A stretch of 64,000 bases of DNA from Bacteroidota bacterium (lineage in GTDB: Bacteria; Bacteroidota; Bacteroidia; Bacteroidales; CAIWKO01), in the NCBI GenBank assembly GCA_037128515.1, contig JBAXWF010000002.1, forward strand, positions 49,586 to 113,585, in the 5' to 3' direction. Below are positions 12,074 to 40,837 of the stretch, one piece after another. The notes under the pieces are model-generated. The model was not told where the DNA came from. It saw nothing but the letters and a program-made list of their open reading frames with translations, and made no database searches. Made by a program: the position numbers and the translations under genes. How positions within the stretch are numbered: the first letter of the stretch is position 1; every line of letters begins with the position of its first letter.

Positions 12074-12688
12074 TCATCTGATACCATACAGTATCGGTTT
12101 GCTTGCAGGCATCAGGCCTGCTTTTGTGAGCGGGCGAACCCTGAACCAACGCTTCGTATCGGGAGTGCCCGACAGATAGGTTTTGCGTTGCTTCGATACC
12201 CCTGCAAACAACCATGCACTGTCGCTTACGGGTAATTTATCATCTGCACTCACCTGCCAGAGATAACTTACTGCTTTCGGATATGCCACACATCCTATCA
12301 GGAATTCTCCGGGGCTCATGCCTGCCAGAATCCAGAAATCGTCGCGCTGCGACGCTTCAGGTTCTTTTGATAATTCAAAACCACTGCTGATGATGATGCC
12401 TTCATCATCATCAGCAGTGACATCAACATATTTGGCCAGTTTGCGCAATAGTTCGAGCAAACTTTTCTTCGAATTTTTCAGGTTCGAATGGTCAAGTTTA
12501 CTTCCGCCTTGTGCAAGTGCGGCTTTATCTTCCACATCGTCGATGGCCGCCGTTACGTCGACCAGTTTCGGACTGGGAGTTGTGAAATTAGGATTACCGG
12601 TCATTTTGTCTACGACAGAACGACTAAATACTATCAGCTTGTCTACTGAGTAGCGAACAAAGCTGAAAATTAATTTTCTAAGTCTCAT
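12074..12688 (-). CDS. hypothetical protein (GC-rich orphan)
   Basis: 204-aa ORF. Sampled 60-nt windows reach about 60% GC, against roughly 30-38% in the neighbouring sequence. No motif recognised. Confidence 0.65.
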   Translation of the reverse strand: MRLRKLIFSFVRYSVDKLIVFSRSVVDKMTGNPNFTTPSPKLVDVTAAIDDVEDKAALAQGGSKLDHSNLKNSKKSLLELLRKLAKYVDVTADDDEGIIISSGFELSKEPEASQRDDFWILAGMSPGEFLIGCVAYPKAVSYLWQVSADDKLPVSDSAWLFAGVSKQRKTYLSGTPDTKRWFRVRPLTKAGLMPASKPILYGIR

Positions 12689-15602: not shown

Positions 15603-15667
15603 AGCCAGTTCTCCCCACTCACTGTAATTTATAATCACAGTACGATAAAACCAAAAGAGTAAAAGGA

Positions 15668-15802
15668 TGTCTGAACCGGGATTTAAGCAGATGAACAATG
15701 TCATAACAGGAATTAAGCAGATTAAGCAGATTACTCAGATGCCAGGTATTATGAAAACTCCTTCTGCGTAATCCATTAATCTGATAAATCGTGGTTCAGA
15801 CA
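15668..15802. repeat. 135-bp hairpin-forming repeat element with 9-mer tandem units, upstream of the GxxExxY gene
   Basis: The termini TGTCTGAACC and GGTTCAGACA are inverted repeats. Three tandem ATTAAGCAG-type 9-mers lie at 15712-15738, with complementary CTGCGTAAT-type units on the right arm. Confidence 0.85.
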
Positions 15803-15825
15803 ATGATTTCAAATACCTTATAAAC

Positions 15826-16233
15826 ATGATAACCGAGGAATACAAATATAAAGAAATAACCGGACGCATAATAGGTGCGGCAATGCGGGTTCATAAAGAA
15901 CTTGGTAATGGTTTTCAGGAGGTAATTTACCAACGTGCTCTGGAACTGGAATTACCTTTTTTTGATTTGAAATTTGAACGCGAATACGAAATGCCCATTT
16001 ATTACCGTAATCAACAGATTGGAAGTCGCAGGGTTGATTTTCTGGTTGAAGAATTGGTTTCAGTAGAGCTGAAAGCCATAATTAAACTCGAAGATGTACA
16101 TCTGGCTCAGGCCATAAATTATTTGGAAGCTTATAATATTGAAGTGGGATTATTAATTAATTTTGGAAGCAAGAGTATAGAAATAAAACGGCTGGTCAAT
16201 ACAAAGTTCGTTCTGCGTAATCCTTTAATCTGA
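15826..16233 (+). CDS. GxxExxY-family protein (PD-(D/E)XK nuclease-like fold)
   Basis: Motif GFQEVIY (GxxExxY) and core RVDFLVEELVSVELK. The last ~8 codons (VLRNPLI*) are supplied by the downstream repeat. Confidence 0.85.
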   Translation: MITEEYKYKEITGRIIGAAMRVHKELGNGFQEVIYQRALELELPFFDLKFEREYEMPIYYRNQQIGSRRVDFLVEELVSVELKAIIKLEDVHLAQAINYLEAYNIEVGLLINFGSKSIEIKRLVNTKFVLRNPLI

Positions 16234-16308
16234 TGAATCGTGGTTCAGACAAAGGATGCTAAGATGTCAGAACCGGGATGAAGCAGATTAATCAGATTGA
16301 GCAGATTA
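16211..16308. repeat. second copy of the repeat with arms in swapped order (tight hairpin), overlapping the GxxExxY 3' end
   Basis: 16211-16251 matches 15762-15802 at 39 of 41 nt. GGTTCAGACA, 13 nt, then TGTCAGAACC forms a hairpin. 9-mers ATGAAGCAG/ATTAATCAG/ATTGAGCAG lie at 16278-16304. Confidence 0.85.
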
Positions 16309-16418
16309 TTAAAAAGAGAAAAAGAATAAAAGCTTAAAAAAAGTGTGAAGTATTGATGCGACTGTTAAAATAATTAAATTTGATTTTTAAAAGTTACAAC
16401 CAATTAAAACCAAAAAAA

Positions 16419-16766
16419 ATGAAACAATTAGCCGTTGGCGACAGCGTAAAAATTAAACAGGGTGTAATGAAACCCTATTTTGGGAAATTAGATCTGAGCG
16501 GCTGGCAGGGTCGTATACTAAAAATATTTTATGAAGACCTAACGGACAGTGGGCATGAGAAAAAATACCTCACTATCGAATACGACAGTATCACACTCAA
16601 ACAAATGACTGAAGAATATATCCTGGGGATGACAGGAGAAGGATTCCCTTTTGCTGAAACTGAAATTTCATACAAGGATATTAACGTTGTTTCTCCCCGC
16701 GATTCGGAAGAAGAAACGACCTCTGTCAGGATGGAATTAAATAAAAAGTATAATTGGGATATTTAA
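16419..16766 (+). CDS. hypothetical protein (115 aa)
   Basis: ATG 16419 (MKQLAVGDSVKIK...). No recognised motif. Confidence 0.6.
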   Translation: MKQLAVGDSVKIKQGVMKPYFGKLDLSGWQGRILKIFYEDLTDSGHEKKYLTIEYDSITLKQMTEEYILGMTGEGFPFAETEISYKDINVVSPRDSEEETTSVRMELNKKYNWDI

Positions 16767-16858: not shown

Positions 16859-17941
16859 ATGAAGACAAACAGTTTGTGGTTACTGCCTCTAATATTGATT
16901 CCTTTCAGTGCTTTTTCACAAAACCTTGTAAAAAACCCTGGTTTTGAGATTATTACAGACACAAACTTTAGTTTAGGATGGTATGACCAGAAATTAGATG
17001 GTAAAGTAAAATATTGGTCATCTCCTACCAGGTCCTCATCGGGTATTATAAAAAAAACAGGTCGAAAACCTTTATTTTATAATGATTTAGTATCCTACGA
17101 TAATACACCCAATGCACATTCCGGAAAGTTCATGTGTAAAATTACAATGTTCGGAACCATAGTAGATTTTGAGGACAGATCCTATCTTCAGGGAGAACTT
17201 TATAAACCCCTGATAAAAGGAAAAACATACCATATTGAATTCTGGATTGCTACAGGATTTATTAATACAGAACTGTTTACAAATAATATAGGGGTTGCAT
17301 TTCTGAAAAACGAATTTCACAGCACGGCTAATTCGGTTTTAAACCTGGCACCACTTCTTAATTATAGCGAAATACCTGACGCAAAACCAAAGGAATGGTA
17401 TAAAATCTCGTGGGATTTTGTAGCTCAGGATGCTTACGGGTATTTTATAATAGGGAATTTTTTTACTGACAAAAGAACAAAATCAAAGTTTGCCGGTCAT
17501 ACAGCTTTGCAACATGCTGTTTATTTAATTGACGATATTTCTCTAATTGAAGCTGATAGTTCCGGCCTATCATTGTTATTACAATCAGTTGAACTTAATA
17601 AACCAATACCTTTAAATAATGTTAATTTTGAAACTAACAAATCAGAGTTATTGGGAAGTTCTTTTGCTGAACTAAAGATTGTAATTGATTTCCTTCAAAA
17701 AAAACCGCAAACAAAAATTGAGATATCAGGGCATACGGATATTACGGGCAATGAAGAAGCTAATATTAAGCTATCCACAAACAGAGCCAAGGCAGTTTAT
17801 GATTATCTGATTACTCATGGTATTAGTTCAGGTAGATTAATTTACAAAGGTTATGGAAGCAGTATTCCAAAAGTAAGTAATGACACACCCGAAAACAGAG
17901 CAATAAATCGACGGGTTGAATTTAAAATTGTTAAACTGTAA
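16859..17941 (+). CDS. OmpA-family protein (N-terminal beta-sandwich-like domain plus C-terminal OmpA peptidoglycan-binding domain)
   Basis: Signal peptide. C-terminal motifs FETNKSEL...ISGHTDITGNEEANIKLSTNRAKAV...NRRVEF. Confidence 0.85.
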   Translation: MKTNSLWLLPLILIPFSAFSQNLVKNPGFEIITDTNFSLGWYDQKLDGKVKYWSSPTRSSSGIIKKTGRKPLFYNDLVSYDNTPNAHSGKFMCKITMFGTIVDFEDRSYLQGELYKPLIKGKTYHIEFWIATGFINTELFTNNIGVAFLKNEFHSTANSVLNLAPLLNYSEIPDAKPKEWYKISWDFVAQDAYGYFIIGNFFTDKRTKSKFAGHTALQHAVYLIDDISLIEADSSGLSLLLQSVELNKPIPLNNVNFETNKSELLGSSFAELKIVIDFLQKKPQTKIEISGHTDITGNEEANIKLSTNRAKAVYDYLITHGISSGRLIYKGYGSSIPKVSNDTPENRAINRRVEFKIVKL

Positions 17942-18009: not shown

Positions 18010-19251
18010 ATGGAAAACAATATTAAATGCCCTGCATGCGGTCATGAATTTCAGGTAGAAGATGCCTTTTTCAACCAAGCTGAAGAAAAGATTAAAAAAG
18101 ATTATGAAAAGAAGTTTTCTCAGCAAGCTGCCATATTTTATAAAAAGACTGAGGCTTTAGAGAAAGAAAAAGAAGAGTTTGAAAAGAAAAAAGAAAAGGA
18201 AAATGAGCTTTTTAAGGAAAGACTGGATAAGAAAATAGAAGAGGAAAAGGTTAAACTTCAAAAGTCAACTGCAGAAGAATTTGAACTCAAGATAAAAGAA
18301 CTGCAAAGTGAGAACGAAAAAAGAAAGGCTGAGAATAAGGAATTAAAAGAAAAAGAATTAAGCATTCTCAAAAGAGAAGCACAACTGAAAGAAAAGCAGG
18401 AAGAAATGGAATTGGAATTCCAGAAAAAAATGCTTGAAAAGAGAGATGAAATAGCTGCAGAAGTTAGAAAAACTGAGCATGAAAAGAATGAATTAAAATT
18501 TAAGGACTTCGAAAAGAAATTTGAGGATCAAAAAAAACTGATAGAAGAAATGCAGCGCAAGGCCGAACAAGGTTCCATGCAATTGCAGGGAGAAGTTCTG
18601 GAACTTGCTATTGAAGAATGGCTGGCAGCTCAATTTCCATTAGATACCATTGAAGAAATTAAAAAAGGCGCCAGGGGTGGCGATTGTATTCAGATTGTAA
18701 ATACACGCACGCATCAAAACTGCGGTACCATTTATTATGAAAGCAAAAGAACCAAAGATTTTCAGGCGGGTTGGATAGACAAATTTAAGAATGATATTCG
18801 GGAGAAAAGTGCCAATGTGGGCGTCATTGTTACAGAGGCAATGCCCAATGATATGGAAAGAATGGGGTTAAAAGACGGCATTTGGATCTGCTCTTATGAA
18901 GAGTTTAAAGGGTTATGCACTGTTCTAAGAGAATCCATCATACAAATAAGCAATGCAGTTTCTTCCCAGGAAAACCGTGGAGACAAGATGCACATGCTGT
19001 ATGATTACCTAACAAGTAATACATTTCGTTTGCAGGTAGAAGCCATTGTAGATGGGTTTACTCAAATGCGCATCGATCTGGACAGTGAGAAACGAGCCAT
19101 GCAAAGCATTTGGAAAAAACGTGAAAAACAAATTGAAAAGGTTACTATTAACACCATTGATATGCATAGTTCTATAAAGGGGATCGCAGGGAATGCGATA
19201 CAAGCGGTTAAATTGATGGAGTTGCCGGAAATAAATCAAGAAGAAGAATAA
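18010..19251 (+). CDS. DUF2130-like protein (Zn-ribbon, long Lys/Glu coiled coil, C-terminal PD-(D/E)XK-like module)
   Basis: N-terminal KCPACGHEFQVEDAF and about 190 aa of E/K-rich coil. C-terminal GEVLELAIEEWL...GGDCIQIV...YESKRTKDF. Family assignment is from memory. Confidence 0.65.
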   Translation: MENNIKCPACGHEFQVEDAFFNQAEEKIKKDYEKKFSQQAAIFYKKTEALEKEKEEFEKKKEKENELFKERLDKKIEEEKVKLQKSTAEEFELKIKELQSENEKRKAENKELKEKELSILKREAQLKEKQEEMELEFQKKMLEKRDEIAAEVRKTEHEKNELKFKDFEKKFEDQKKLIEEMQRKAEQGSMQLQGEVLELAIEEWLAAQFPLDTIEEIKKGARGGDCIQIVNTRTHQNCGTIYYESKRTKDFQAGWIDKFKNDIREKSANVGVIVTEAMPNDMERMGLKDGIWICSYEEFKGLCTVLRESIIQISNAVSSQENRGDKMHMLYDYLTSNTFRLQVEAIVDGFTQMRIDLDSEKRAMQSIWKKREKQIEKVTINTIDMHSSIKGIAGNAIQAVKLMELPEINQEEE

Positions 19252-19277
19252 ATAGTTATTATACTAAGAAAGTAGTC

Positions 19278-19760
19278 ATGGATATCCCCAAGTTCATAGC
19301 AACACTCAGCAAAGAGGAACTGAAAGAACTGGAAGATTTTTTGCACCAGAAAAAAGTTGCCGATAATATTGATGAGCAGGAGTGGTATCACATTCAATTT
19401 CTGGCACTAAAAGAAAAACAAAAACAGCAGGCATGGGATGCTCTGAAAAATAGAGAAACAGGTGCGGTACCCATTATTGATTTTATTGATATTGTTGAAC
19501 TACCCTGCAAACTGAAGTGGGTGCTGAAAAAGTTGTGGGACGATCGTATAGCGTATTATCTGGATGATATAAGCCGGAAGAAGTTTCTAAAGATACGACA
19601 TGCAGGGGTTGGCACCTGGAATATATTAATGGATATCATAAAAACCTTGCTACAGGGAACCCGCTTTCAAGCACAGCAACCCCGTTCGGCGGCAGGCTAT
19701 GCCTCCGTCGTATTATTAATCGAAACTCCGCCTCAATCCCCATTTGAAAATTCCTGCTAA
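19278..19760 (+). CDS. small MDIPKF-family paralog A (alpha-CTD-like helix-hairpin-helix inferred; divergent C-terminus)
   Basis: The first 402 nt are collinear with paralog C at about 92-93% identity. The tail from 19680 is unrelated. Confidence 0.7.
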   Translation: MDIPKFIATLSKEELKELEDFLHQKKVADNIDEQEWYHIQFLALKEKQKQQAWDALKNRETGAVPIIDFIDIVELPCKLKWVLKKLWDDRIAYYLDDISRKKFLKIRHAGVGTWNILMDIIKTLLQGTRFQAQQPRSAAGYASVVLLIETPPQSPFENSC

Positions 19761-19864
19761 TTGTGCTAAGTTTACAACTTAATTTTTAAATTTGCTCTTT
19801 GCCCCAACAATCACTAACTTTGTCTTTCCGTTTATTTGAATTTATTATTAAAAAATAAAGTCTT

Positions 19865-20299
19865 ATGGATATCCCAAAATTTGTATCATCGCTCACCGAA
19901 AATGAGTTAAAACAATTGAGAAAATATTTAAAAAATGAAAACATAGTAAGTCATATTGATGAACATGAACAATATCGATTAGATTGTGAGGCGAAAAAGG
20001 AAAAAGAAACACAGGAGGCGTGGGAAGCCATGAAAAGCAGAACTACGGGAGTGATACCCGTTATCGATTTTTTTGATAATTTGGAATTGCCGTCAAGAAT
20101 AAGATACATAGTTAAAGGTTTATGGGACGATCGTGTTGCTTATTATATGGATGATATTACGAAAAAGAAATTCTTTACCAGAAGAAATGCAGGCAAATTG
20201 AGTTGGGTTAAAATGATAGATTTTATAAAGTCCTCGCTGAAAGGAACCATTTATGAAGCTCATCAAGAAGCATTGTTAAAGCATTTTGAAGATCAGTAA
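19865..20299 (+). CDS. small MDIPKF-family paralog B (divergent copy)
   Basis: Same architecture: MDIPKF..., ...LPSRIRYIVKGLWDDRVAYYMDDITKKKFFTRRNAGKLSW... About half of residues match A and C. Confidence 0.7.
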   Translation: MDIPKFVSSLTENELKQLRKYLKNENIVSHIDEHEQYRLDCEAKKEKETQEAWEAMKSRTTGVIPVIDFFDNLELPSRIRYIVKGLWDDRVAYYMDDITKKKFFTRRNAGKLSWVKMIDFIKSSLKGTIYEAHQEALLKHFEDQ

Positions 20300-20317
20300 C
20301 CAAAACCCAATCCCAAA

Positions 20318-20782
20318 ATGGATATCCCCAAGTTCATAGCAACACTCACCAAGGTGGAACTGAAAGAACTGGAAGATTTTTTACATGTGAAAAAAGTTGC
20401 CGATAATATAGATGAGCAGGAGTGGTACCACATTCAATTTCTGGCACTAAAAGAAAAACAAAAACAGCAGGCATGGGATGCTCTGAAAAACAGGGAAACA
20501 GGGGCAATACCCATCATTGATTTTATTGATACTGTTGAACTGCCCTGCAAACTGAAGTGGGTGCTGAAAAAGTTGTGGGACGATTGTATAGCGTATTATC
20601 TGGATGATATAAGCCGGAAGAAGTTTCTAAAGATACGTCATGCAGGGGTTGCCACCTGGAATATATTAATGGATAGTATAAAAACCTCGCTGAAAGGAAC
20701 CCGATTTGAAGTTCAGCAAGCAAAGCTGACGAAGCATTTCGAGTGGCAGGAATCGTTGAAAGGTATTAAAGGCGTCAATTAA
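20318..20782 (+). CDS. small MDIPKF-family paralog C
   Basis: Near-duplicate of paralog A, offset by exactly 1040 nt. Confidence 0.7.
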   Translation: MDIPKFIATLTKVELKELEDFLHVKKVADNIDEQEWYHIQFLALKEKQKQQAWDALKNRETGAIPIIDFIDTVELPCKLKWVLKKLWDDCIAYYLDDISRKKFLKIRHAGVATWNILMDSIKTSLKGTRFEVQQAKLTKHFEWQESLKGIKGVN

Positions 20783-20811
20783 TTACTTCGGACTCCGGTC
20801 TTCTCCCCGGA

Positions 20812-23103
20812 TCAATTCACAATCTTCAACTTGGCATATTGCAACAACAATTGTTTTGAACCTACACCATCGAACAACACGGTAGTTTTTTTGTTGGGTC
20901 CGTTGCCTTCAACGGTCATCACTTTTCCGCGGCCAAAGCGCTGATGTTCTACGGTCATGCCTATGCGTATGTCGTCGATGTCGGATGGAGAGAAGGGTTC
21001 CGAAAGGGTGTTGTTGGTTTCGCTTAGCTTTTTCAGGTTCAGCGGTTTTTTCTGCAGAGGTTGAACCATGGGTTTCTGCAGCCAGGGATTGTCGAGTTTT
21101 TGTTGCGGTGTTTTGCGCGGCACATCGATAAATTTCGGGTCGATCTCGTCGATGAAGCGGCTCACCTCGCTGAATATCATCTCGCCGTATTTGTAACGGT
21201 TTTCGGCATAGGACAAGGTCAGGCGTTTCATGGCCCGTGTGATGGCCACATAGAACAGGCGGCGTTCTTCTTCCAGGTCGTCGCGGCTGTGGAGCGACTG
21301 CATGGAAGGAAAGAGATTTTCTTCCAACCCGCTTACGAAGACATAAGGAAACTCAAGGCCTTTGGCCTGATGTATGGTCATTAAAGATACACGGTCGGTA
21401 TTATTCTTATCTTCGGTGTCGGCATCGGTGAGCAGGGCAATGTCCTGCATAAAGATGTCGAGCGACTTGATGGAGTTTTCTATCAGGGTGCCGTCGGGGG
21501 CAAAAATATGTTCTTTTTCGGTAAACTCTTTGATGGCGTTGAGCAGTTCGTCTATATTTTCCAACCGAGCCACACCTTCGGGCGACTCGTCTTGTTTCAG
21601 TTCCTTGAAAATACCGCAAGCCAGAGCAATTTTTTTTGCCAGTTCGTAAGCATCTTTTATAGGCACTTGCACTGTAAAACTACGTATCATGGTAGTAAAA
21701 TCCTGTAGCCGCTGCATAATGCCTGAGTTTAACTGCAAATTAAACATTGCAGCCTGACTAATGATTTCCCACGAACTTTTTTTCAAAGCATTTGAAGCCA
21801 GCACCACCTTTTGTAGAGTGGTATCGCCAATGCCGCGCGCCGGGTAGTTGATACAGCGAAACAAGGCTTCTTCATCGTTGTTATTAATCACCAAACGGAA
21901 ATAGGCAAGCAAGTCTTTTATTTCTTTGCGTTTATAAAACGAAAGTCCTCCATAAATTTTATAGGGGATGTTTAACCGCCGCATGGCTTCTTCAATAGAG
22001 CGCGATTGTGCATTGGTGCGATACAACACTGCGAAATCGGAATTCGGCAATTGGTTATTCATTTTAATTTCGAACACCGAATTGGCAATCATGGAACCTT
22101 CTTCGTTATCAGAAGATGCTTTGAGCAACACAATTTTGTTGCCTTCTTCGTTTTCGGTCCAAATTTCTTTGAAATATTGTTTTTTATTTTTTTGTATTAC
22201 GCTGTTGGCAGCATTCACAATATTTTGTGTTGAACGATAGTTTTGTTCCAGTTTCACAGTTCTAGCATCAGGATAATCGCTTTTAAAGTTTAAAATATTC
22301 TGAATATTGGCTCCGCGAAAACCGTAAATACTTTGAGCATCGTCGCCCACAACACACAAATTTTCGTTATCGGCAGCCAGTTTTTTTATAATCATGTATT
22401 GGGCATAATTGGTATCCTGATACTCGTCAACCAATATATATTTAAACTTTCGCTGGTACTTATATAATATTTCGGGAAAATCGCGCAGAACCAAATTCAT
22501 ATTGTAGAGCAAATCGTCAAAATCCATAGCAAAAGCCCTTTTGAGTTTGTTCTGATAAATAGTAAAAAGTTGTCCGATTTGTGGTTTGCCCGAGGCTTTG
22601 TCATAATCCACCAACTCCACATTCCGATTGTAATCTTCCTGCGACATCAGATTGTTTTTTGCAGTCGATATCCGATGCAATACATAGGCAGGTGGATATT
22701 GTTTCACTTCCAAATTTTGTTCTTTCAATATGGCTTTCATGATACTTTTGGTGTCGTCGGTATCATAAATAGTGAAATTTTGCGGGTAGCCCAACACATG
22801 GCCATCAACACGAAGCACACGGGCAAAAACAGAGTGAAAGGTACCCATCCAAACATTCATTGCATCGGAAGAACCTACCAAACGTGTGATGCGGTCTTTC
22901 ATTTCGCGGGCTGCCTTGTTGGTGAATGTGAGCGAAAGTATATTAAAAGGGTCAACACCTTGATTTAACAAATGAGCAACTCTGTATGTCAGAACTCGGG
23001 TTTTACCCGAACCAGCCCCTGCCAATACCATAATTGGGCCGTTGATACATTCAACAGCATGTCGTTGGGTTTCGTTAAGATCAGCGAGAATATCTTTTTT
23101 CAT
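20812..23103 (-). CDS. ATP-dependent DNA helicase, UvrD/PcrA/Rep (SF1) family
   Basis: Start at MKKDILADLNETQ. Walker A AGAGSGKT, DEYQDTN, and QNYRS plus later SF1 motifs. Confidence 0.9.
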   Translation of the reverse strand: MKKDILADLNETQRHAVECINGPIMVLAGAGSGKTRVLTYRVAHLLNQGVDPFNILSLTFTNKAAREMKDRITRLVGSSDAMNVWMGTFHSVFARVLRVDGHVLGYPQNFTIYDTDDTKSIMKAILKEQNLEVKQYPPAYVLHRISTAKNNLMSQEDYNRNVELVDYDKASGKPQIGQLFTIYQNKLKRAFAMDFDDLLYNMNLVLRDFPEILYKYQRKFKYILVDEYQDTNYAQYMIIKKLAADNENLCVVGDDAQSIYGFRGANIQNILNFKSDYPDARTVKLEQNYRSTQNIVNAANSVIQKNKKQYFKEIWTENEEGNKIVLLKASSDNEEGSMIANSVFEIKMNNQLPNSDFAVLYRTNAQSRSIEEAMRRLNIPYKIYGGLSFYKRKEIKDLLAYFRLVINNNDEEALFRCINYPARGIGDTTLQKVVLASNALKKSSWEIISQAAMFNLQLNSGIMQRLQDFTTMIRSFTVQVPIKDAYELAKKIALACGIFKELKQDESPEGVARLENIDELLNAIKEFTEKEHIFAPDGTLIENSIKSLDIFMQDIALLTDADTEDKNNTDRVSLMTIHQAKGLEFPYVFVSGLEENLFPSMQSLHSRDDLEEERRLFYVAITRAMKRLTLSYAENRYKYGEMIFSEVSRFIDEIDPKFIDVPRKTPQQKLDNPWLQKPMVQPLQKKPLNLKKLSETNNTLSEPFSPSDIDDIRIGMTVEHQRFGRGKVMTVEGNGPNKKTTVLFDGVGSKQLLLQYAKLKIVN

Positions 23104-23348
23104 AATCGGGACTGCAAAGTTACAACTAAAAAAAAACAAAACAGAAATTGTGGAAAATAATGTAATAATATAATAAGGTATAAAATGAAGGTTAAAGTAA
23201 ACTTTGGTATGTTTTTTATTGCAAAAATTAAAAGGAGCATTTTCAAATATTTAAGTTTTTAATAAGGGTACTTACGAACTTAAAAATTGAAGAGATTAAA
23301 TTAAATTAATTTTTTTTTAAAAACTCTTGCTAATATCAAATTAAGTTT

Positions 23349-39844: not shown

Positions 39845-40837
39845 ATGGCAATATTAGCTTTTCAAAAACCGGATAAGGTTGTAATGTTGGAGTCTGACGA
39901 TTTCTTCGGAAAATTCGAATTTCGTCCACTCGAACCTGGATATGGGACAACTGTTGGCAATTCCTTAAGAAGAATATTACTTTCTTCTCTTGAAGGATTT
40001 GCAATTACCAATATAAAGATTAATGGTGTTGAACAGGAGTTCTCATCCATAGAGGGTGTGTTGGAAGATGTACCTGAAATCATCCTTAATTTAAAAAAAA
40101 TCTGTTTTAAGAGACAGATTGAATCGATTACTAATGAAAAGGTTGTTGTTACACTTTCTGGTAAAGATGTTATTAAAGCAGGTGAAATGAATGCATTTCT
40201 TTCAGGATTTCAGGTGTTGAACACGGAAGAAGTAATTTGCCACCTAGAGCCCGAAGTGATTTTGGTAATGGAAATTACTATTGACAAAGGAAGAGGTTAT
40301 GTTCCCGCTGAGGATAATAAAATACTTAATGGTGCGCTTGGAACTATTGCTATAGACTCAATTTTTACACCGATTCGGAATGTGAGATTTGTTGTGGAAA
40401 ACTATCGTGTTGAGCAGAAAACCGATTATGAGAAACTAGTGCTCGATATTACCACAAACGGTTCTATTCATCCTAAAGAAGCATTAAAAGAAGCTGCAAA
40501 AATATTGATACACCACTTCTTACTTTTTTCAGATGAAAAGATTACGATGGATACTGAAGAAAAAGCAGTTGTTGAGGAATTTGACGAAACTTCGTTGCAT
40601 ATGCGCCAATTATTGAAAACAAAACTTGTTGACCTTGATTTGTCAGTAAGAGCGCTTAATTGTTTGAAAGCTGCTGATGTTGAAACTCTGGGAGACCTAG
40701 TTTCATATAACAAAAATGATTTGCTTAAATTTAGAAATTTTGGTAAAAAATCATTAACGGAATTAGAAGAACTTGTAAAAGCAAAAAATCTACAATTCGG
40801 AATGAATATTTCCAAATACAAATTAGATAAGGATTAA
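39845..40837 (+). CDS. rpoA: DNA-directed RNA polymerase subunit alpha
   Basis: 330 aa. NTD motifs and a C-terminal HhH ([20 protein letters not shown]). Confidence 0.96.

Follow-up and report, generated by a model that had tools for sequence, protein, structure and literature searches.

A solitary DUF2130 gene and rare small genes with a predicted αCTD-like core as probable chance neighbours in a Bacteroidota genome

Introduction

Does a DUF2130 gene that is closely followed by three small genes of one family form a functional unit with them, or were these genes brought together by chance? The question is raised by a locus of a Bacteroidota metagenome-assembled genome (MAG; locus tags WCQ95_00875 to WCQ95_00890), which was analysed within the whole 64-kb stretch of DNA presented above, hereafter called the window. 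In a first-pass annotation, the DUF2130 protein, described as a coiled-coil, nuclease-like protein, was proposed to act together with the small proteins, and fortuitous adjacency was named as the fallback. The results presented here make it likely that the locus holds two unrelated neighbours in one genome, joined by a rearrangement: a solitary DUF2130 gene, and rare small genes whose products are predicted to contain a core similar to the C-terminal domain of the RNA polymerase (RNAP) alpha subunit (αCTD). The features on which the argument depends are listed below.

18010-19251, plus strand: DUF2130 gene, 413 amino acids (aa)
19278-19760, plus strand: small paralog copy 1, 160 aa
19680-19864, plus strand: junction and upstream region of copy 2; homology to the related contig L001 starts at about 19677-19681
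19865-20299, plus strand: small paralog copy 2, 144 aa, divergent B type
20318-20782, plus strand: small paralog copy 3, 154 aa, A type, full length
20812-23139, minus strand: PcrA/UvrD helicase gene, convergent on the small-gene array

All coordinates of the first-pass annotation hold: the gaps separating DUF2130, copy 1, copy 2 and copy 3 are 26, 104 and 18 nucleotides (nt), and the stop codons of copy 3 and of the convergent helicase gene are 29 nt apart.

Results

Gene neighbourhoods of the two families

A comparison of gene neighbourhoods, which the first-pass annotation had itself suggested, was used to determine if the two families occur together. The DUF2130 scan, limited to one genome per species, yielded 593 confirmed loci, and for the best 80 of these the flanks were retrieved, up to 10 kb per side. 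In these best 80 of 593 loci, all from other Bacteroidota, the profile of the small family (E ≤ 1) detected no family member (0/80). The reverse comparison gave the same picture, as none of the nine small-family loci from outside this lineage (P0004, P0005, P0008, P0045, P0046 and L098-L101) contained a DUF2130 gene (0/9). Moreover, no other neighbour from the window was conserved beside DUF2130 in the 80 loci. Clustering of the neighbouring open reading frames (ORFs) revealed genus-level synteny within Flavobacterium only, and RecQ, tried as a conserved partner, was rejected after being found in one locus only. The closest DUF2130 homolog with available context (L097, 71% identity) has a LytTR gene downstream and otherwise unrelated neighbours. 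The two families do not co-occur, and their adjacency is not kept in close relatives. A lack of co-occurrence is among the outcomes that the first-pass annotation had itself named as refuting its proposal. The proposed unit of nuclease and small proteins is not supported by these comparisons, and chance appears to be the better reading of the adjacency, as the fallback of the first-pass annotation had allowed.

The small genes, the junction and related strains

The description of the small genes as three tandem paralogs was correct in that there are three genes of one family, but copy 1 is truncated. Copies 1 and 3, both of A type, share 92.5% nt identity over 402 nt and 86% aa identity, and copy 2, of B type, is 46-51% identical to both at the aa level. 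The homology of copy 1 to copy 3 covers 134 codons (19278-19679) and ends at codon 134. The tail that follows (19680-19760, 26 codons) is unrelated, has no counterpart in the family and corresponds to intergenic DNA in a related strain. Copy 1 is also devoid of the last helix of the family, which comprises residues 131-150 in the AlphaFold2 (AF2) model. Judged from these alignments, copy 1 is not a full family member and is cut at a rearrangement junction at 19679/19680. Nor is it a fresh duplicate: its synonymous divergence (dS) from copy 3 is 0.24, with an omega of 0.17, which makes it about as distant as the ortholog on contig L095. In a cluster look-up, the 160-aa product was recorded only for this MAG (two contigs, NCBI and ENA). 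The gene-position index had no entry for the exact products of copies 1 and 2, but according to the cluster look-up both belong to the collection. Copy 3, by comparison, is the anchor gene beside the 3' end of pcrA in three related strains.

The related strains locate the same breakpoint. The pcrA fragment of contig L001 is 90% identical to that of the window at the aa level, and the contig aligns to the window only from 19677 onward, a point that coincides with the end of the homology between copies 1 and 3; its leftmost 103 nt match nowhere in the 64-kb window. Contig L095 carries a single A-type gene beside pcrA and no copy 2, and this gene is preceded by a terminator hairpin with a 10-bp stem and a U-rich tail (-18.4 kcal/mol, z -3.95) and by a TAATTTTG motif. 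In other genomes, the cluster look-up finds a 154-aa gene and a 144-aa gene, one of each, and a near-identical pair (P0172/P0174) is present on a contig of 234,789 bp, the longest with this pair, and on eight others. The number of copies beside pcrA varies between one, two and three, and the adjacency to DUF2130 appears specific to this genome.

The stretch of the window containing copies 2 and 3 (19877-20776) is 97-100% identical in nt to positions 291-1208 of L001. The flanks are more diverged: the left intergenic DNA is 82-85% identical and pcrA 68-97%, and most of the 100-nt bins of the flanks are at 80-92%. The same is visible in the dS between the window and L001, which equals 0.025 for copy 2 and 0.054 for copy 3 versus 0.80 for pcrA. 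The simplest reading of this pattern is that the cassette of copies 2 and 3 underwent a recent lateral exchange (or a sweep) between diverged genomes.

Upstream of copy 2, two Bacteroidota-type -7 motifs (TAnnTTTG) are found at 19787-19794 and 19815-19822 as consensus matches only; the motif is not enriched in the window (109 occurrences versus 94 expected), and promoter calls based on it are positional hints. A σ70-type promoter scan returned 12 sites versus 8.9 expected, with a model that does not cover Bacteroidota promoters. Copies 2 and 3 would probably be transcribed from about 19787-19822, the position of the two motifs being the hint.

The DUF2130 protein

The assignment of the 413-aa protein to the DUF2130 type was confirmed by its match to Pfam PF09903 (E 1.6e-75 at 254.1 bits, with the cut-off at 26.7; 2-253 of the 255 model positions covered). 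Behind an N-terminal CxxC (C7, C10) comes a coiled coil rich in Glu and Lys (about 170-190 aa), and the C-terminus is a PD-(D/E)XK module, so that the coiled coil and nuclease-like module noted at first pass are retained. In an alignment of 10 sequences, in which the homologs are 64-69% identical to the window protein, the residues E195/E198/E202, D225 and E244-S245-K246 are invariant. They correspond to the classical PD-(D/E)XK signature and, at the level of sequence, place the protein in this superfamily. A survey of the superfamily that also includes RmuC (PMC3424549) counts DUF2130 among the PD-(D/E)XK families whose function is unknown.

The first-pass annotation also described a zinc-ribbon-like motif, CPACGHEF, at the N-terminus. 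A zinc ribbon contains four Zn ligands, usually provided by two CxxC/CxxH knuckles. In the same 10-sequence alignment, C7 and C10 are the only invariant Cys residues of the N-terminal region and H12 is not conserved; the NCBIfam CxxC model reached 15.8 bits, below its cut-off of 37. With one conserved CxxC pair, and four ligands absent, the zinc ribbon is therefore not supported.

More than 8000 relatives of the DUF2130 protein are present in the protein collection, with 56-71% identity across Bacteroidota. The best of them (60-71% identity over the full length) belong to several lineages of Bacteroidota and to one Chloroherpetonaceae MAG; the ortholog of Flavobacterium johnsoniae (L089) is 58% identical. 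The sole match in PADLOC-DB v2 was LmuB, on the coiled coil and not significant (E 0.062, 9.4 bits), and PHROG and PADLOC gave nothing significant for DUF2130 or for the three small proteins. Within its known but uncharacterised family (PF09903, COG4487), the DUF2130 gene is an ordinary one, which in Bacteroidota stands alone and is vertically conserved.

The core of the small proteins

The AF2 model of full-length copy 3 is all-helical, with a predicted local distance difference test score (pLDDT) of 92 and a predicted template modelling score (pTM) of 0.71, and contains a helix-hairpin-helix (HhH) at about residues 66-124. Several comparisons relate this region to αCTD. Using hhalign, the family profile matched the C-terminal domain of the host RpoA with E 1.3e-4, and the domain profile matched a four-sequence αCTD profile, three sequences of which were entered by hand, with a probability of 87% and E 4e-6. 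The Pfam model RNA_pol_A_CTD (PF03118) matched 3 of 31 members, P0013 at 24.3 bits against a gathering cut-off of 23.8 and the other two weakly; in the Pfam scan, it matched none of the three window copies. The PDB sequence search with the domain profile gave the RNAP alpha subunit (RpoA) as the best match, weak at E 0.3, and this match aside, the other PDB sequence searches with the small proteins (direct and profile) returned noise.

The structural comparison pointed in the same direction. Foldseek, run with a domain-only AF2 model (pLDDT 87.5), placed αCTD structures in all four top positions (3k4g, 4mex, 8wa0 and 6flq). For 3k4g, the αCTD of E. coli, the probability was 0.90 and the TM score 0.51, with a root-mean-square deviation of 2.7-3.2 Å over 65 columns; the E-values of the αCTD matches are weak, at 0.2-4. 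With the full-length model, in which the long helices dominate the comparison, Foldseek found nothing meaningful in PDB or BFVD. Both the models and the profiles predict that the core of the small family has an αCTD-like fold, which supports, at the level of the fold, the first-pass guess of DNA- or RNAP-binding-like proteins. The matches to other small DNA-binding HhH modules (ComEA, TfoX/Sxy) are far weaker than those to αCTD, with none at the level of the family.

The contact of αCTD with DNA is made by the '265 determinant', which consists of R265, N268, G296, K298 and S299 in E. coli numbering. At the equivalent positions, R is present in 24, N in 13, G in 27, K in 20 and S/T in 22 of the 31 members, and the R, G and K are retained in the consensus of the family. 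The corresponding residues are K, W, G, A and T in copy 3, and R, Y, G, L and S in copy 2.

Distribution and contexts of the small family

When 1.84 billion cluster representatives were searched exhaustively with the family profile (E ≤ 1e-3), 38 clusters were found, or 37 after removal of P0017, a 1505-aa eukaryotic plakin-repeat-like protein that was excluded as spurious. A word-indexed search with the small proteins returned near-identical sequences only, and Pfam, NCBIfam, PADLOC and PHROG contained no significant model for them. The family is rare and undescribed, and consists of all-helical proteins of 100-170 aa. Apart from one 25-aa match, no relatives were found in the mobile-element collections (50,697 phage records, 72,556 plasmids and IMG/VR). 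A first metagenome scan for family loci returned nothing, and a second one returned four loci.

In four of the six usable family loci outside the window, the immediate neighbour is a gene with a C-terminal sorting domain (Por_Secre_tail) of the type IX secretion system (T9SS). These cargo genes are located at L003 8132-8644, L093 8420-9883 and L099 4275-5309, and on the P0008 contig. The background, determined with a home-made profile, is 23 ORFs in 1.37 Mb of Bacteroidota DNA, or about 1.7% of genes, and the binomial tails for the adjacency range from 2e-5 to 9e-3, according to the rate that is assumed. By the same home-made profile, no T9SS sorting-domain gene is present in the 64 kb of the window.

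Elsewhere in the MAG there is one more family member, the fourth and a divergent one (WCQ95_10185, L093/L094 10001-10504), which is situated downstream of a T9SS cargo gene and is convergent on the gene of a 1289-aa SNF2 helicase. Convergence of a family gene on a helicase gene is seen at two loci, this one and that of the window. Short distant members of about 100 aa, from termite-gut contigs (L007 171-1676; L008-L012), are located 12 nt downstream of a conjugative coupling-protein-like gene, a label that rests on the author's reading of the C-terminus of that gene.

Upstream genes and flanks

Three further genes of the window are located upstream of DUF2130.

15826-16233, plus strand: GxxExxY/PDDEXK_3 gene inside a repeat-flanked cassette
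16380-16766, plus strand: KOW/SH3-like small ORF, start probably at 16416
16859-17941, plus strand: OmpA-family gene with a signal peptide (Pfam OmpA, E 5.7e-21), between the KOW-like ORF and DUF2130

Searches of Pfam, NCBIfam and PDB returned no match for the KOW-like family. A link to the small family comes from P0008, a 309-aa protein (JGI sample 3300075153, contig of 9751 bp) in which a KOW-like homolog is fused to a small-family domain. Its N-terminus matches the window ORF 16380-16766 (BLASTP E 1e-22), its C-terminus matches the small-family profile (E 9.5e-17), and three T9SS cargo genes follow downstream. As a Rosetta-stone fusion, P0008 hints at a possible joint action of the small family with the KOW-like protein.

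The GxxExxY gene named in the first-pass annotation was located, with its PDDEXK_3 domain, outside the proposed unit. Its cassette (15655-16320) is characterized by direct repeats of 45-77 nt (15754-15830 and 16203-16279) and by inverted repeats, and the flank upstream of it forms a long hairpin (-44 kcal/mol, z -4.5). On contig L096, the cassette (1725-2510) stands directly upstream of DUF2130, where the KOW-like and OmpA genes are absent, and it is preceded by a 79-nt duplicate of the 5' end of DUF2130. This arrangement suggests that the cassette is mobile. In the DUF2130 ortholog of the same contig (88% aa identity), homology is lost at window position 18975 and a stop occurs at residue 324. 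The DNA that follows (L096 3440-3556) resembles the repeat of the GxxExxY cassette (CAGATAAATCGTCGTACAGA versus CTGATAAATCGTGGTTCAGA), and the L096 gene may have been disrupted by such a repeat element.

The orphan-gene stretch at 12-20 kb contains no integrase or other mobile-element gene, and no credible Rfam RNA family was found in 11.5-23.5 kb. Its GC content is 30-36%, compared with 43% over pcrA (20001-22000). One of its orphan ORFs (12074-12688, minus strand, 204 aa) has a strong homolog in another organism (L003 2030-2656, minus strand, E 2e-76), located 4.6 kb upstream of the family member P0004. This points to a variable region, closed by a small-family gene, whose gene order is loosely shared between the window and L003. 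The upstream flank is occupied by core metabolism genes: cytochrome bd, an Rrf2 regulator, a hybrid-cluster protein and saccharopine dehydrogenase.

On the other side, the UvrD-type helicase recognized at first pass matches the PcrA/UvrD model TIGR01073 (E 1e-238), with the domains UvrD-helicase, UvrD_C and PcrA_UvrD_tudor. Its gene is located directly beside the rpsL-rpsG-fusA operon; it is a housekeeping pcrA/uvrD and not an island gene.

Discussion

The history that would account for the locus begins with one A-type gene, or an A+B pair, standing beside the 3' end of pcrA under its own promoter. A rearrangement in this MAG would then have added a third copy, of A type and truncated at its 3' end, at 26 nt behind DUF2130, which would have given the locus its operon-like look, and co-transcription of copy 1 with DUF2130 would probably be a by-product of this event. 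The two sets of genes would have separate functions. We infer that the DUF2130 protein may be a dimeric coiled-coil, structure-specific DNA nuclease of recombination or repair, with an RmuC-like architecture; its single N-terminal CxxC may, more speculatively, pair between subunits in a shared Zn site resembling a zinc hook. The small proteins may be transcription-associated and bind DNA or an RNAP-associated partner through their αCTD-like domain.

Some points weigh against two unrelated neighbours with these functions. Both contigs used for comparison, L001 and L095, are short and metagenomic, and their upstream reach is limited. The 26-nt gap between DUF2130 and copy 1 contains no terminator-like site, which makes their co-transcription in this strain probable; given this, a functional link between DUF2130 and a small gene that is specific to the lineage is conceivable. 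The distant family member P0046 is located 40 nt upstream of a DUF1016/YhcG PD-(D/E)XK gene and leaves some room for a loose link between the small family and nucleases. In the window copies, the equivalents of N268 and K298 are replaced, and DNA binding in the manner of αCTD, which is plausible for the family, is therefore doubtful for these three proteins.

The same strand, the short terminator-free gap, the plausible nucleic-acid binding of both parts and the different PD-(D/E)XK gene beside one distant member could also be expected if DUF2130 and the small paralogs formed one functional system, for instance of defence or DNA processing, in which the small proteins target or regulate the nuclease. 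Such a system is highly improbable in view of the absent co-occurrence in both sets of loci (0/80 and 0/9) and the lack of the adjacency in L001 and L095. Moreover, the gene that adjoins DUF2130 is a truncated copy, PADLOC gave no significant match, and DUF2130 is evenly conserved across the phylum, unlike defence genes. The junction itself could be an artefact, with copy 1 and the 19679/19680 boundary produced by metagenome mis-assembly across a repeated gene, and with an A+B pair only in the real genome. L002, an independent Logan assembly, breaks off 30 nt inside copy 1, in a part that does not differ from copy 3, and the 160-aa product is recorded for this MAG's records only. The same L002 assembly, however, also contains DUF2130 with the first nucleotides of copy 1 behind it, which is an independent confirmation of this order. 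With 7.5% of positions differing from copy 3 and an omega of 0.17, copy 1 is a distinct real gene and not a collapsed duplicate, and no long shared k-mer is visible at the junction. We regard mis-assembly as very unlikely.

A different possibility is that the small genes are a conflict or selfish cassette spread by recombination, their products being αCTD mimics that divert RNAP, UP-element DNA or αCTD-binding activators, with DUF2130 irrelevant to their role. The 98-100% identity between genomes with diverged flanks (dS 0.03-0.05 versus 0.8), the copy number of one to three and the αCTD-like fold agree with this idea, as do the short distant members found by a conjugative coupling-protein-like gene and, on the author's reading, in phage-like contexts. 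It is nevertheless rather unlikely, since no phage, plasmid or IMG/VR relatives were found in the collections searched beyond the one 25-aa match, no integrase or mobile-element gene was seen in the island, an omega of about 0.2 corresponds to ordinary purifying selection, and the phage reading of L100 and L101 is a judgement on unannotated ORFs. A more constructive role can be imagined with a similarly low probability: the small proteins would be free-standing αCTD mimics that influence transcription, either by sitting on UP-element-like DNA or by binding the partners of αCTD. A second module directed at RNAP would be the KOW/Tudor-like protein encoded at 16380, as the two are fused in P0008, and the exchanged cassette would be adaptive, perhaps tuning the expression of neighbouring T9SS cargo genes. 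If this were true, Bacteroidota would possess small transcription modulators of a class not described before.

Two unrelated neighbours joined by a rearrangement thus remain the likely explanation, and the case shows that a rearrangement is able to mimic the appearance of an operon. The evidence is against a new nuclease-based system as first proposed. The solitary, phylum-wide occurrence of DUF2130 without a fixed partner argues for a housekeeping role in DNA metabolism and against defence. What is new is a rare, unannotated family of stand-alone proteins with a predicted αCTD-like core, together with its changes in copy number and near-identical cassettes in diverged genomes; the T9SS cargo adjacency and the KOW-like fusion provide leads from its contexts. 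The promoter architecture of Bacteroidota is unusual, and if the small proteins act on RNAP or promoter DNA, they would be a new kind of small regulator in this phylum.

Comparison with known systems

The DUF2130 protein agrees with its own family (PF09903, COG4487) in a full-length match far above the cut-off, in the retained PD-(D/E)XK residues and in its 56-71% identity to hundreds of orthologs from Bacteroidota, and nothing notable sets it apart. RmuC (PF02646), a recombination-limiting protein, combines a long coiled coil at its N-terminus with a PD-(D/E)XK domain at its C-terminus. The DUF2130 protein has the same architecture, to which it adds the N-terminal CxxC; its likeness to RmuC is an analogy of mechanism and not membership, as the RmuC model did not match it at E ≤ 0.1 in the Pfam scan. 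For the small proteins, the closest known counterpart is αCTD, with which they share the HhH pattern S-x-R-L-x-N-x-L ... R-N-x-G-K-K-S-W-x-E-L. They differ from it in an additional N-terminal helical hairpin, a long helix and a C-terminal helix. They differ also from RpoA, the genuine gene of which is present in the window at 39845-40837, because at 144-160 aa they stand alone, without the alpha N-terminal domain. The likeness to other short HhH domains is more distant: ComEA gave a weak profile match only (E 1.6), and the C-terminal domain of TfoX/Sxy, likewise a short HhH, surfaced only in the HhH/alpha literature search.

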